Shown here: positions 2,851 to 24,022 of the stretch, in pieces
Numbering within the stretch: the first letter of the stretch is position 1
How the letters are laid out: each line of letters starts with the position of its first letter
Source: Candidatus Bathyarchaeia archaeon
GTDB lineage: Archaea > Thermoproteota > Bathyarchaeia > 40CM-2-53-6
Length of the DNA stretch: 64,000 nt
Assembly (NCBI GenBank): GCA_050013255.1
Contig: JBEKFP010000002.1
Span: forward strand, 384,001-448,000
Direction: 5' to 3'
Position numbers and translations under genes: made by a program
Notes under the pieces: model-generated
What the model saw: only the letters and a program-made list of their open reading frames with translations
Database searches by the model: none
Told to the model about the DNA's origin: nothing

Positions 2851-3849
2851 CTAACTCTTCCCTTCGAGGTCGAGTTCTCTCCACCTATGGCACGCGACGT
2901 AGTGTCCTTCAGCAACTTTCTCCCATTGGGGATCCTGTTTCATGCAGATATCTTTCGCGTACTTACAACGGGGATGGAATACGCACCCTGTCGGAGGTTC
3001 GATGAGGTTGGGTATGTTGCCAGGGATTACCTCCAACGCCCTCGTTTGCGTCACGCTTGGTACGGCTTTTAGAAGTGCTTCTGTATACGGGTGCTTGGGC
3101 TGGGTGAAGAGTGTAGTTGTGTCCGCCTCCTCCATGACCTTGCCCGCGTATAGAACAGTCACGCGTTCTGTCATGTCTGCAACTATTCCCATGTCATGGG
3201 TAATCATGACCATCGTCATCCCATACTCTTTTTGGAGTTGCTTTAGGAGGTCCAGCACTTGGGCTTGGATGGTAACATCAAGGTTCGTTGTTGGTTCATC
3301 CGCGAAGAGTAGTCTCGGTTCGCAGGACAGGGCGCGAGCGATCGCAATTCGCTGTTTCATTCCTCCACTCAGTTCGTGCGGGTACGCGTTCAGCCTGCTT
3401 TCAGGCTCCTGAATTCCAACCTTCTCAAGCAACCCTAAGGCAGACTTTGTTGCCTGCTCCTTCGTAAGCCCCTTGTGAAGGAGAATAATGTCGGTGAGTT
3501 GCTTCTTCACAGTGTACACCGGATTGAGCGATGTGGTAGGGTCTTGGAAGACAACAGCCATCTTGGCGCCTCGCATTTTCCGCATTTCAGATTCTGATTT
3601 CTCTAGGAGGTTTTCTCCATCGAATTTTATGGTCCCATCGACGATTCGTCCCGGTCTCGGAACTATTCGCAGAACGGATTGAGCGGTAACCGACTTACCG
3701 GACCCAGATTCCCCAACGAGCCCTACGGTTTTGCCTTCTTCCACTGAAAGAGAGATGCCATCTACCGCCTTTACAACCCCTGCTTCGGTGAAGAAGTAGG
3801 TGCGGAGGCCAGTAACGTCTAGGAGGTTCTTCGTCATGATTCGATTCAA
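2851..3849 (-). CDS. oppD: Oligopeptide/dipeptide ABC transporter ATP-binding protein
   Basis: GESGSGKS, LSGGMKQR, ADEPTT, GCVFHPRC. Confidence 0.93.
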   Translation of the reverse strand: MNRIMTKNLLDVTGLRTYFFTEAGVVKAVDGISLSVEEGKTVGLVGESGSGKSVTAQSVLRIVPRPGRIVDGTIKFDGENLLEKSESEMRKMRGAKMAVVFQDPTTSLNPVYTVKKQLTDIILLHKGLTKEQATKSALGLLEKVGIQEPESRLNAYPHELSGGMKQRIAIARALSCEPRLLFADEPTTNLDVTIQAQVLDLLKQLQKEYGMTMVMITHDMGIVADMTERVTVLYAGKVMEEADTTTLFTQPKHPYTEALLKAVPSVTQTRALEVIPGNIPNLIEPPTGCVFHPRCKYAKDICMKQDPQWEKVAEGHYVACHRWRELDLEGKS

Positions 3850-19076: not shown

Positions 19077-20051
19077 CTATCGGCTTGCTCGGCGCTTAGT
19101 GACTAGCTTGCGGCCGGCGGAGTAAGGATCTATTTTGTTCGCCTCCACCTGTTTCATGATTTTCTGAAACAGTTCGGATGATGCTATCTCCTTTAATGAT
19201 ATCTCCTCAAAATACTGCTTGGCTGCCTCAAGCACCTCCGAGCGCAACCGGTCTTCTTTCGCCTTCCCCAACCCATCAGAGTCCTTAAGGTATTTTGAGT
19301 GCTGGTTTATGGCCTCCACAAGGCCAGTGACTCCTTCTCCGGACATCGCGACCGTCTTCAGGACGCGTGGCCGCCAGCCTCGGAAATGTTCGGACATCAT
19401 GATCATTTGGTCAATTTCTTGCGCTGCGCGGTCCGCATTCTCCCTATCGGCCTTGTTGACGACGAAGATATCAGCGATTTCCATAATGCCCGCTTTCAAC
19501 GCTTGAATTTCGTCCCCCATCCCGGGGGCAGTTACAACGATTGTGGTATGGGCGAGTTGCTTCACATCTACATCAGACTGACCCGCTCCCGCTGTTTCAA
19601 CAATCACATAGTCCATCGCTGACGCGTCGAGGATTCGAACCGCGTCCTCCGTTGCTCTTGCAATTCCTCCAAAATGCCCGCGAGTAGCCATGCTCCTGAT
19701 GAAGACTCGGGGGTCCGACGCGAGTTCTCCCATCCTAATTCGATCACCGAGCAAGGCTCCACCAGTTATGTGACTTGATGGGTCGACGGCAACAATTCCT
19801 ACACTGCGGCCAGCATCTCTGTAACGCTTCGCGAGCTGTGCGATTAGCGTGCTCTTTCCACATCCTGGCGGACCAGTTATACCAATGATCTGAGCCTTCC
19901 CAGCAAGCCAGTACAAGCTGGAAAGAATCGTAATTCTCGCAAGAGGATCATTTTCCGCAGTCGACATTAACTGCGATATGGCACGTCGATCGCCATGCAC
20001 AGCTTTTCGAATTAATGTGTTGGGTGTTGATTTTGCATGGGATTTAGGCAC
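19077..20051 (-). CDS. meaB: Acyl-CoA mutase-associated GTPase MeaB/ArgK
   Basis: GITGPPGCGKST, AVDPSS..GGALLGDRIRM, FIRSMATRG, NKAD. Confidence 0.93.
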   Translation of the reverse strand: MPKSHAKSTPNTLIRKAVHGDRRAISQLMSTAENDPLARITILSSLYWLAGKAQIIGITGPPGCGKSTLIAQLAKRYRDAGRSVGIVAVDPSSHITGGALLGDRIRMGELASDPRVFIRSMATRGHFGGIARATEDAVRILDASAMDYVIVETAGAGQSDVDVKQLAHTTIVVTAPGMGDEIQALKAGIMEIADIFVVNKADRENADRAAQEIDQMIMMSEHFRGWRPRVLKTVAMSGEGVTGLVEAINQHSKYLKDSDGLGKAKEDRLRSEVLEAAKQYFEEISLKEIASSELFQKIMKQVEANKIDPYSAGRKLVTKRRASR

Positions 20052-20075: not shown

Positions 20076-21665
20076 CTAGATAATGGTCTTGGGATGAAAC
20101 TCCCCATATTCCTCTCTTATGACATCGCTTATTTCGCCAGTGGTACCCCCGGACTTTACAGCGCTGATTATCAAAGGCATCACGTTGATGTCGTCCTCCA
20201 AAGCCTTCTGAAGCTTTCTGAGGCTGCGAAGTAGCCGAGTTTTGTGGCGTTTTCGTTTGAAAGCTTTGGTGCGGGAGATCTGCCGGCGTACTGCTGCCGG
20301 AGCGATCTTATGGAGGGTGATGTGGTACGGTTTCGGGTCAACATATACGTTAACCCCGACTATCTTGTTAGCTCGCGATTCTATTCCCATTTGCCTCTTG
20401 AAGGCGCTATCGCGAATCTGGTTCTGGATGTATCCGCTCTGGATTGCTTTGACAGCACCGCCTAATTTGTCGACTTGATGTATCTCGGCTTTGGCTTCGC
20501 TCTCAATCTTGTTCGTTAGAGATTCCACGTAGAAGCTCCCACCCAATGGGTCAATTGCCTTTGTCACGCCACTTTCGAAGGCTATTATCTGCTGCGTTCG
20601 GAGGGCTATTTTCACGGCTTCCTCTGTAGGTAAAGATAACGCTTCGTCGAGGGAATTTGTGTGCAGGGATTGTGTGCCCCCTAAAACCGCTCCCAAAGCT
20701 TGTATAGCTACGCGCACAATGTTGTTTTGCGGTTGCTGTGCAGTCAACGTTTCACCGCTAGTCTGAGTATGGAAACGTAGCTTCATAGACTCAGGATTCT
20801 TCGAGTGGAATTTCTCTTTCATCATATGCGCCCATATGCGACGCGCTGCACGGAACTTCGCTATCTCTTCCAGGAAATCGTTATGGCATGCAAAGAAGAA
20901 GGACAAGTGTGGTGCGAAATCGTCGACCTCCAATCCTCGCTTAATGCAAGCACGAACGTACTCCTCTGCGTTTGCAAACGCGTAAGCGAGTTCCTGGACT
21001 GCGCTTGAGCCACTTTCCCTTATGTGGTATCCGCTTATGCTGATTGGGTGCCACATCGGCATCTGCTTCGCACAAAATTCGATAATGTCCACAGACAACC
21101 TCAAGGATTGCTCGGGAGGGAAAATGTAGGTATTTCGTGCGATGTACTCTTTGAGAATATCATTCTGCGTCGTTCCCCGCAATCGTGAAAGTGGAACCCC
21201 CTGCGAAGTCCCAACCGCAGCATACATCGCCAGCATTATGGCCGCCGTAGCGTTAATGGTCATCGAAGTACTGACCATTCCAAGCTTGATGCCTTGGAAA
21301 AGCAATCGCATATCTTCCACGGAACTGATGGGTACTCCTACCCGGCCCACTTCGCCCTCGGCTCTCGGGCTGTCTGAATCATACCCCAATTGAGTCGGAA
21401 GGTCAAAGGCGACGCTGAGCCCGGTTTGTCCTTGCTTTATCAGAAACCTGAAACGCCTATTCGTGGCTTCCGCGCTACCAAACCCCGAATACTGCCTCAT
21501 CGTCCAGAGCCGCGAACGGTACATTTCAGGGTAGATACCGCGCGTAAATGGAAATTTGCCCGGTTCACCCAGAATGCCTTTGGGGTAGCGAGGACTGGAA
21601 TCTGACCCGTCGTAATGCTGCTTCCCTGGCAGGCCAGGCGAAGAAGAACTCTTCCCTCCCTTCAA
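20076..21665 (-). CDS. Methylmalonyl-CoA mutase large (substrate-binding) subunit
   Basis: WTMRQYSGFG, TQNDILKEYIARN, GYHIRESG, GGTQSLHTN. Carries the Tyr/Arg specificity pair. Confidence 0.92.
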   Translation of the reverse strand: MKGGKSSSSPGLPGKQHYDGSDSSPRYPKGILGEPGKFPFTRGIYPEMYRSRLWTMRQYSGFGSAEATNRRFRFLIKQGQTGLSVAFDLPTQLGYDSDSPRAEGEVGRVGVPISSVEDMRLLFQGIKLGMVSTSMTINATAAIMLAMYAAVGTSQGVPLSRLRGTTQNDILKEYIARNTYIFPPEQSLRLSVDIIEFCAKQMPMWHPISISGYHIRESGSSAVQELAYAFANAEEYVRACIKRGLEVDDFAPHLSFFFACHNDFLEEIAKFRAARRIWAHMMKEKFHSKNPESMKLRFHTQTSGETLTAQQPQNNIVRVAIQALGAVLGGTQSLHTNSLDEALSLPTEEAVKIALRTQQIIAFESGVTKAIDPLGGSFYVESLTNKIESEAKAEIHQVDKLGGAVKAIQSGYIQNQIRDSAFKRQMGIESRANKIVGVNVYVDPKPYHITLHKIAPAAVRRQISRTKAFKRKRHKTRLLRSLRKLQKALEDDINVMPLIISAVKSGGTTGEISDVIREEYGEFHPKTII

Positions 21666-21773
21666 AGTTGCACGAACAATCCTAGGAACCAGGCACGTAT
21701 ATGACCTTGAAGGAAAACGCTCTCAGATCACCCAAAAGAACATTAACGCCCCTCCTCTGAACTTTCTAAGTTC

Positions 21774-23546
21774 GTGTGGAAACAAATGCCACCAAAACGA
21801 AAAATGAATTACTGGGCCAAGAAAGTTGAGCAAATTGCAGCCGCCAAAAAGAAACAGGGCAGGCTGTACAACCGCAAGGAGCTCCATTCCATCGCGCGAA
21901 AGCAGCGCAAATGGAGCCAAGGCGCTCTCACGGAATGGTTGGTAAAAGCACCTGAGCGCAGGGAAGCCTTCGAGAATCCCTCAGGAATCCCCATCAAGCG
22001 CATCTATGGTCCCACTGATGTGTCGCACCACGATTATCCTCGTGATGTTGGATTACCCGGCGATTTTCCATACACCCGTGGAATTTACCCTACCATGTAC
22101 AGGGGTCGCCCGTGGACTATGCGAATGTTCTCAGGTTACGGGAGCCCTGAGGAAACCAACGCCCGCCTAAAGTACCTCCTTAAAGAAGGCGAAACTGGAC
22201 TGAGCATCGCTTTCGACATGCCCACCTTGTATGGAATTGACGCTGACCATCCGAGAGCGGAAGGCGAGGTTGGCAAATGCGGCGTTTCCGTATCGTCACT
22301 CAAAGACATGGAGGCTATCTTCGATGGTATTCCGCTTGATCAGGTCAGCACTTCAATGACAATCAACGCGCCGGCTTCGGTCCTAACTTGTATGTATGTT
22401 GCAGTCGCAGATGGACGCGGATTGAGGTCAAGAAAACTGCGCGGCACCGTGCAGACGGATATTCTCAAGGAGTATGCTGCCCAAAAAGAGTGGGTGTATC
22501 CCCCTGAAGCCCATCTCCGAATTATCCGTGACATGATGCTTTACTCCACAAAACACCTCCCGCAATGGAACTATGTCAGCATAAGCGGATACCACATTCG
22601 AGAAGCTGGTTCAAGCGCCTTGCAAGAACTGGCTTTTACACTGGCCGATGGTTTTGCATATGTAGACCTAGGCCTCGAGGCTGGGTTGAAGGTGGATAAT
22701 TTTGCCCCCAGGCTGTCGTTCTTCTTTAACTGCGGAATGGATTTCTTCGAGGAAATTGCAAAATTCCGGGCTGCCCGACGAATCTGGTCTAAAGTTCTCA
22801 AGGAAAAATACCATGCGAAGGACCCAAGGTCAATGCTGATGCGATTTCACACTCAGACATCGGGCGTATCGTTGACATGGCAACAACCACTCAACAACAT
22901 CGTAAGAACTGCGGTAGAGGGCTTAGCCGCAGTAATGGGTGGAACACAATCTTTGCACACAAACGCCTACGATGAAGCCTGGGCTCTGCCAACACAGCAG
23001 GCTGCCTTAATTGCGCTGAGAACGCAGCAACTCCTGGCCGAAGAGACAGGTGTTGCGAACGTAATTGACCCTCTCGGCGGGTCTTATTATGTAGAATCGC
23101 TAACGGATGAAATGGAACAGCGAACATTCGAGTATCTCGCGAAAATCGAGGACATCGGCGGTATTCTGGCCGCCATCAAGAAAGGTTTCATCCAAAGAGA
23201 AATCGCAGACACCTCATACAAGTATCAACGTCAGATGGAAGAAGGCAAGAGAGTTATTGTGGGAGTCAATGCCTACGAAATGAATGAAGCTTCTCCTATT
23301 GAGACTCTAAGAATCGACGAAAAGGTGCGCCAGAGCCAGGTAAAGAGGTTAAATGAAGTCAAAAATACTAGGGATGCCACCGCGGTGAAAAACTCTTTAG
23401 AACAACTGCGCTCCTCTTTCGCGGATCCTGATTCAAACAGTATTTACCCGATGCTTAAAGCCGTCAAATCCTATGCGACACTTGGAGAGATCGTTGACGT
23501 TGGGAGAAAAGTGTTCGGGGACTGGAAGGAACCCTCGATACTCTGA
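21774..23546 (+). CDS. B12-dependent acyl-CoA mutase large subunit, isobutyryl-CoA-mutase-type residues
   Basis: WTMRMFSGYG and VQTDILKEYAAQK (Phe/Gln pair), GYHIREAG, GGTQSLHTN. Confidence 0.88.
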   Translation: MWKQMPPKRKMNYWAKKVEQIAAAKKKQGRLYNRKELHSIARKQRKWSQGALTEWLVKAPERREAFENPSGIPIKRIYGPTDVSHHDYPRDVGLPGDFPYTRGIYPTMYRGRPWTMRMFSGYGSPEETNARLKYLLKEGETGLSIAFDMPTLYGIDADHPRAEGEVGKCGVSVSSLKDMEAIFDGIPLDQVSTSMTINAPASVLTCMYVAVADGRGLRSRKLRGTVQTDILKEYAAQKEWVYPPEAHLRIIRDMMLYSTKHLPQWNYVSISGYHIREAGSSALQELAFTLADGFAYVDLGLEAGLKVDNFAPRLSFFFNCGMDFFEEIAKFRAARRIWSKVLKEKYHAKDPRSMLMRFHTQTSGVSLTWQQPLNNIVRTAVEGLAAVMGGTQSLHTNAYDEAWALPTQQAALIALRTQQLLAEETGVANVIDPLGGSYYVESLTDEMEQRTFEYLAKIEDIGGILAAIKKGFIQREIADTSYKYQRQMEEGKRVIVGVNAYEMNEASPIETLRIDEKVRQSQVKRLNEVKNTRDATAVKNSLEQLRSSFADPDSNSIYPMLKAVKSYATLGEIVDVGRKVFGDWKEPSIL

Positions 23547-23581
23547 ACTTCGGAGGTGGAAAGATCTCAACAACAGGGTTG

Positions 23582-24022
23582 ATGGATAGGAAGACCCAGC
23601 CGAGAAAGATTAGGGTGCTTGTGGCAAAGCCCGGGCTCGCGTAAAACCTACGGCCAAACGGGCACGACCGTGGCGCCCTTGTTCTGTGCAGGGCACTCCG
23701 AGATGCTGGGATGGAGGTAATCTACGCAGGGCTCTTGGCTAGCCCTGAACAAGTCGCCCAGATGGCCATAGATGAGGACGTTGATGTTGTCGCTATGAGT
23801 CTACTCAACGGGGCACACATGACCGCGTTCCCGAAAGTCGCGAAGGCGCTAAAAGAGAAACGGGCAAGCGACATACTGCTTGTAGGTGGCGGCATTATTC
23901 CCGAGGAAGATAAACCAAGACTAGAAAGGTTGGGAATAACGGGAAATTTCGGCCCAGGCACAACTCTGAAAGCGATCGTCGACCACATAGTGGTCCGCGT
24001 TCAGAAGGAACGCTGGAAGTAG
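23582..24022 (+). CDS. Acyl-CoA mutase cobalamin-binding small subunit, join(23582..23639,23658..24022), 140 aa after removal of the putative intron
   Basis: Joined frame reads [44 protein letters not shown]...EDVDVVAMSLLNGAH...VGGGIIP...FGPGT. The unspliced frame stops at TAA 23642-23644. Confidence 0.88.
23640..23657 (+). other. Putative 18-nt bulge-helix-bulge pre-mRNA intron (CGTAAAACCTACGGCCAA)
   Basis: Canonical 3-4-3 BHB geometry; the predicted cut sites restore the GAC (Asp) codon of DxHxxG. Confidence 0.85.

Follow-up and report, generated by a model that had tools for sequence, protein, structure and literature searches.

The gene for the B12-binding subunit of a methylmalonyl-CoA-mutase-type enzyme in an uncultured Candidatus Bathyarchaeia archaeon from peat is interrupted by an 18-nt insert (23640-23657) that is very probably a bulge-helix-bulge (BHB) micro-intron of the hBHBh' type in the mRNA; the genome has no second B12-binding subunit of the mutase type. 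The gene lies in a window of 64,000 nt, the whole stretch of DNA that was analysed, from contig JBEKFP010000002.1. The genome is archaeal, 2.46 Mb in size, assembled in three contigs, and has many intron-bearing tRNA genes. An earlier sequence-only reading of the window had proposed a tRNA-type intron in a metabolic mRNA, a proposal that comparison with other genomes supports through same-site inserts, their geometry, frozen codon sites, intron losses and the enzymes present. From the anatomy, conservation, selection, losses and enzymes, we infer that the insert would be cleaved out and the exons ligated.

The gene extends from 23582 to 24022 on the forward strand (Table 1). A TTG at 23579 is an alternative to the ATG start at 23582, and the frame that begins at the ATG meets an in-frame TAA at 23642-44, inside the insert; beyond the 18 nt it resumes and runs to the stop at 24020-22. 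The second exon matches the Pfam B12-binding profile (PF02310) over profile positions 12-115 (E 4.6e-22), and when the profile is allowed to read through the TAA, the match begins at position 5, with that one TAA inside it. Deleting exactly 23640-23657 yields CTC G|AC GGG (L-D-G) and thereby completes the DxHxxG motif, which supplies the His ligand for B12. In the mutase B12 subunit, this motif is complete only with the insert removed. The homologues in a set of 80 outgroup genes, fetched from named genomes of Nitrososphaerales, Bathyarchaeota, Thermoplasmata and many bacteria, all carry the uninterrupted sequence K[PLVAS]GLD[GS]HDRG. The claim that an in-frame TAA lies in 23640-23657 and that its removal restores the Asp motif is thus confirmed by the sequence and by these 80 uninterrupted genes.

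Public annotation reflects the interruption. Gene callers had been predicted to report a truncated protein from 23711, and a 103-aa product starting at this Met was indeed found on 33 public contigs, exon 1 having been missed. In relatives, the B12 subunits in public records are 126-aa products that start inside the insert. Rfam and ARAGORN searches of the window gave no match at all. A self-splicing group I or group II intron was considered and rejected, since such introns need a catalytic core of hundreds of nucleotides, whereas the inserts are 16-23 nt long and no Rfam family is found in the window.

Table 1. Features of the split B12-binding subunit gene, its neighbours and other split genes of the genome. 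Bases in pairs carry the last two digits of their positions.
Feature	Position	Strand	Description or basis
Exon 1, B12-binding small subunit	23582..23639	+	19 codons and the first base (G) of the Asp codon
Predicted BHB micro-intron, 18 nt	23640..23657	+	CGUAAAACCUACGGCCAA, in-frame UAA; sequence, frame, fold, same-site inserts in 20 other species
Exon 2	23658..24022	+	AC of the Asp codon, then GHDRG...; 120 codons and TAG (24020-22)
Outer (exon-exon) helix, 5' strand GCCCG	23629..23633	+	Pairs with 23659-23663
Outer helix, 3' strand CGGGC (exon 2)	23659..23663	+	G29-C63, C30-G62, C31-G61, C32-G60, G33-C59
Central 4-bp helix, 5' strand GGCU (exon)	23634..23637	+	Pairs with 23652-23655
Central helix, 3' strand GGCC (intron)	23652..23655	+	G34-C55, G35-C54, C36-G53, U37-G52
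5' bulge CG|C	23638..23640	+	Predicted cut after 23639
3' bulge AA|A	23656..23658	+	Predicted cut after 23657
Intron hairpin GUA-AAACC-UAC (inner helix h', 3 bp)	23641..23651	+	Folding
Mutase large subunit, directly upstream of the B12 subunit	21774..23546	+	PF01642, E 1.9e-220; 35-nt gap
Second mutase large subunit, divergently transcribed	20076..21665	-	PF01642, E 1.6e-212
MeaB mutase-associated GTPase	19077..20051	-	PF03308, E 1.4e-83
cbf5 insert	L123 1789-1807; G000 contig C2 about 595040-595057	-	Exon and fold reading
EF-2 split, outside the window	G000 contig C2 about 307002-307231	-	Sequence
glyA split, outside the window	G000 contig C1 706117-706150 (loci L124/L126)		34 nt; Pfam match

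The same junction was read in relatives after a search of 61 related genomes and then of the family's full set of 59. Inserts at this very site are present in 21 species, 14 of them from the archaeon's own genus and seven from a second genus, with lengths of 16, 17, 18, 19 or 23 nt. Most of these lengths are indivisible by three and would shift the frame, which excludes translation through the insert. The BHB geometry is found in all 21 carriers, consisting of a 4-bp central helix with a 3-nt bulge on each side and an outer helix of 3-5 bp. The inner helix is more variable. It has 2-5 bp in the own genus, the 23-nt intron alone reaching 5 bp, and carriers of the second genus form at most a weak one (0-3 bp, in most cases no more than 1 bp) and so have a relaxed motif. 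A relaxed form of this kind, resembling a bulge-helix-loop, has been reported to be accepted by heteromeric EndA (PMC2738675).

The fold predicted for the archaeon's own transcript agrees with this picture. Four of the five outer-helix pairs are kept in 99-100% of the 21 species, the central helix is made of three G-C pairs and one U-G, and the 3' bulge is unpaired in the minimum free energy (MFE) fold of the own genome and of most of the 21 species. The unconstrained MFE fold contains the same outer helix and 3' bulge, with C40-G52 replacing U37-G52 so that the central helix is reduced to 3 bp; the canonical 4-bp form is only 0.8 kcal/mol above it. Against shuffled sequences, the local fold shows no significant gain in stability (z = -1.47). 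For a given site and length, the background frequency in the own genome of a BHB that is equally good, meaning an outer helix of at least 5 bp, a 4-bp centre and an inner helix of at least 3 bp, is 3.7e-6. The 3-4-3 pairings described in the sequence-only reading are all present, and the central helix is paired in 21/21 species. Further exon pairing, between 23612-24 and 23668-79, had also been suggested; it exists in this sequence, but only 79% of cells are paired across the 21 species, and this long-range pairing is not a conserved part of the element.

An alignment of orthologs, offered earlier as a check, bore out the presence and absence of the intron and its geometry, and gave less with respect to compensatory covariation. 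The exchanges seen in the central helix among carriers are GC/GU and UA/UG, and these are one-sided; no change on both sides of a pair was found in the outer or central helix among the 21 carriers. Compensatory covariation is scarce because the bases of the helices hardly vary.

Archaeal BHB motifs are cleaved by EndA between the second and third residue of each bulge (PMC2738675). Applied to this fold, the rule places the cuts after 23639 and after 23657, which is the sole pair of cuts that restores Asp. A shift by one nucleotide loses the residue, as had been claimed, with both cuts moved by -1 giving Asn and by +1 giving Ala. In 21/21 carriers, the canonical cut gives G|AC and restores GLDGHDRG. 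In the proposed mechanism, exon positions 23629-37 would pair with intron positions 23652-55 and exon positions 23659-63, leaving two 3-nt bulges 4 bp apart. A heteromeric (alpha-beta)2 splicing endonuclease would cleave each bulge behind its second nucleotide, 3' of 23639 and of 23657, and RtcB would then join the exons. The resulting G|AC junction would restore Asp to the cobalamin-binding DxHxxG motif, in a protein of 140 aa. If the message were not spliced, translation would stop after 20 residues, and any product made from Met 23711 would be without the His ligand.

A different way to deal with the insert would be to keep it in the mRNA and have the ribosome bypass it by hopping or frameshifting, as in T4 gene 60, or to make two separate polypeptides. 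The exon 1 frame does stop soon after the start of the insert, and hairpins can promote hopping. Nevertheless, this explanation is contradicted and appears very unlikely. A GAC codon arises only by cutting and rejoining the RNA, and without it the invariant Asp could not be made; nor were matching take-off and landing codons seen in the sequence. Insert lengths of 16-23 nt have no constant frame relation, and what is conserved suits an endonuclease substrate rather than a hop. A product of 103-126 aa would be without the DxH ligand.

Because the exon helices of the predicted micro-intron are built of codons, selection on the RNA becomes visible as frozen synonymous sites. The 21 carriers have 73 degenerate codons at which the amino acid never changes, and the third base is frozen in no more than six of them. 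The helices account for four of these six, through their Pro, Gly, Asp and Gly codons (hypergeometric P 1.4e-5). The same positions vary in 15 intron-less relatives, which have Pro CCC in 0/15, Gly GGG in 3/15 and Asp GAC in 5/15. On this codon comparison, the helix constraint seen as frozen synonymous sites is RNA-level selection on the putative element.

The state of the gene also bears on whether it is simply decaying, a small stop-bearing insertion having inactivated the B12 subunit. Such a pseudogene would account for the in-frame TAA and for the truncated public annotation. However, the insert persists in 21 species of two genera with both exons open in every carrier, in line with the earlier argument that intact flanking frames speak against decay, and carriers have 77-96% identity in the exon 2 protein. 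SNPs among strains are at third codon positions. The subunit is the sole one of the mutase type in a genome with two intact large subunits and MeaB, and decay leaves the frozen synonymous helix sites unexplained. The pseudogene explanation is contradicted by these observations, and we give it very little credence.

The intron has been lost more than once. In a tree of the large and small subunits, two species of the own genus that have no intron group together with 100/99 support and are nested among carriers. The insert is likewise missing from a 33.7-kb contig that is closest to another carrier. The pair and the contig have the exact GLDGHD junction and relaxed codons. Nested intron-less lineages with the exact junction indicate that the insert was removed at least twice at the predicted junction. 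For cbf5, the same pattern of loss has been described, and it was suggested that a copy made from the spliced mRNA had replaced the gene (PMC2738675).

Two short intron-less contigs from other species, L127 (IMG 3300019273, Ga0187794_1324768) and L132 (SRR29906890), retain the frozen helix codons (CCC/CCT GGG CTN GAC GGG). They may represent spliced cDNA or a very recent loss of the intron. A contig pair from the same species with and without the intron was not found, the nearest relatives of the intron-less contigs having at most 82% DNA identity.

The insert was also followed in metagenomes, where 19 runs from peat or wetland contain at least half of the stretch's sampled words. In an independent sample, a contig of 2064 nt covers 23000-23965, including the insert, without gaps. 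In two further metagenomes, an 18-nt and a 17-nt form of the intron occur together, the latter having one A fewer at 23643 and making up roughly 40% of the depth within the population. No insert-free DNA joint was found in three DNA runs read across the locus, and the strain SNPs of exon 2 are at third codon positions. One RNA run, which contains 5% of the stretch's words, had no reads placed on the mutase locus. That the insert might be an artefact of assembly or sequencing is suggested only by its small size. Against this stand the gap-free contig from an independent sample, the 17-nt variant in two other DNA runs and the same-site insert in the genomes of 20 other species. In independent metagenomes the insert is present, and no DNA joint lacks it; an artefact is contradicted and has almost no chance of being the explanation.

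The B12-binding subunit gene follows a mutase large subunit gene after a short gap, and the two are probably in the same operon. This order, large subunit and then small, recurs in all fetched carrier loci whose sequence extends far enough upstream to show it. Searched in full, the genome gave no second B12 subunit of the mutase type; its one further PF02310 match lies within a 497-aa frame. The two divergent large subunit genes (20076-23546) have one MeaB and, apparently, one B12 subunit common to both.

This arrangement invites the idea that a genuine intron serves as a switch, the efficiency of splicing setting the level of functional B12 subunit and gating both mutases. One small subunit serves two large-subunit genes, an unspliced message would give no functional product, and a role as negative regulator was proposed for the cbf5 intron by its authors (PMC2738675). 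However, the 16-23 nt, with their poorly conserved loop, show no evident sensor element or alternative fold, and at least two lineages have lost the intron without an evident change in the coding sequence. The data fit selfish or neutral persistence just as well. A regulatory switch is an unlikely addition to the micro-intron reading, if a good deal less so than decay or bypass.

The machinery that the micro-intron would need is encoded in the genome. There are two EndA paralogs, at L001 1213-1785 and L002 1204-1767, each with PF01974/PF02778. The first has the Tyr/His/Lys block, and its best match among solved structures is chain 3p1z_B (E 1.5e-38), which we take to be the catalytic alpha subunit of the Aeropyrum pernix EndA heterotetramer. 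The second is without the catalytic His and fits the structural beta subunit, so that the pair would be of the crenarchaeal alpha/beta type. RtcB is present as well (494 bits). Its 1039-aa open frame contains a 481-aa intein with an Intein_splicing domain (L121 2674-4116, minus strand; G000 contig C1 112141-113583).

Judging by their sequences, the mutase gene is not unique in this genome, and cbf5, EF-2 and glyA are split in the same way (Table 1). The cbf5 gene has a 19-nt insert between GHGGTL and DPKVTGVLP with an HBh'-type motif, in which CCCU:GGGG forms the central helix and GAC:GUC the inner helix. Its exon 1 corresponds to the DKCLD domain and its exon 2 to the rest of TruB_N, TruB_C_2 and PUA. 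In EF-2, a 28-nt insert follows ...KEQIR and contains a 7-bp stem (GACGUAG/CUGCGUC); the joined exons would read QIRNMGIIAHVDHGKT. In glyA (SHMT), the Pfam match is broken by 34 nt into profile positions 5-50 and 51-399.

A genome-wide scan for short BHB inserts, also proposed earlier as a check, did not set such genes apart. The search for BHB motifs joining two open, coding-like frames returned 3239 matches, compared with 3136-3403 in shifted controls. With a codon score added, there were 31 against 18-28 in the controls, and with the strict motif 51 against 52-59. With no excess over the shifted controls, the motif alone would not identify the intron. The mutase ranked sixth in the strict-motif scan. 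The five candidates above it were dismissed as ordinary adjacent genes (a permease pair, fumarase subunits, fibrillarin/DUF61 and others). The scan missed the relaxed-motif cases in cbf5, EF-2 and glyA, and thus gives no count of mRNA introns.

A bolder interpretation would be that this family of peat Bathyarchaeia extended EndA/RtcB splicing to the cbf5, EF-2, glyA and mutase mRNAs, each intron sitting in a highly conserved motif and the one in the mutase serving as a post-transcriptional gate on a lone B12 subunit used by two acyl-CoA mutases. Taken as a whole, we regard this as improbable.

If the mutase message is spliced, a metabolic gene joins cbf5, and splicing of archaeal mRNA by protein enzymes is broader than a single textbook case. 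The host lineage is mesophilic and globally abundant, and the host gene is part of core metabolism. With its carriers, precise losses and frozen codons, the mutase intron is a natural experiment on how an intron is kept and lost. There is also a systematic annotation error, in that the subunit is listed as a fragment of 103-126 aa on dozens of contigs; pathway reconstructions based on such fragments would score the mutase as incomplete.

A literature search of full texts outside subscription journals found no report of a BHB intron in the mutase or in any mRNA of Bathyarchaeia. Among archaeal protein-coding genes, cbf5 alone is described in the literature searched as having a spliced BHB intron within the coding sequence. 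A 2020 paper speaks of the BHB motif as occurring "in one mRNA", and a paper from 2025 cites no other work than that on cbf5. The mechanism, cleavage by EndA and joining by RtcB, is a known one, and the mutase as host gene is new in the literature searched.

The cbf5 pre-mRNA intron of Desulfurococcales and Sulfolobales (Watanabe 2002; Yoshinari 2006; Yokobori 2009, PMC2738675) is one of the closest known systems, and these two orders are the only ones for which it is described in PMC2738675. Like the mutase intron, it is a short insert in a protein-coding gene (16-44 nt in cbf5), with cuts between the second and third bulge residues. The two also have in common a link to hetero-oligomeric EndA, the disruption of a conserved motif, precise secondary losses and mis-annotation by gene callers. 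They differ in the host gene, an RNA-modification enzyme in one case and a subunit of a metabolic enzyme in the other, and in the host organism, a hyperthermophilic crenarchaeote as opposed to Bathyarchaeia from peat. The cbf5 introns are mostly described as unconventional, whereas the mutase intron has the full hBHBh' form in its own genus. Splicing of cbf5 was demonstrated experimentally, while that of the mutase message is predicted.

The introns at non-canonical positions in the tRNAs of Thermoproteota resemble the mutase intron in BHB geometry, in size range and presumably in the enzymes that process them. The difference lies in the context, which for the mutase is an mRNA whose exon helices are made of codons. 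An mRNA is also involved in the case of Haloferax volcanii HVO_1309, where the BHB site reportedly lies in the 5' part of the message, not within the coding sequence, and the enzyme is the homomeric EndA of euryarchaea. What it shares with the mutase is that an archaeal mRNA carries an EndA substrate; HVO_1309 mRNA is cleaved by EndA both in vivo and in vitro (PMC7714728). Outside the archaea, the splicing of HAC1 and XBP1 by the IRE1/RtcB system is similar in being independent of the spliceosome, in removing a short mRNA intron with a structure-recognising endonuclease and in changing the reading frame, and in metazoans, the ligation is likewise carried out by RtcB. There, however, the endonuclease is IRE1, the motif recognised is a stem-loop, and the system is regulated by stress.
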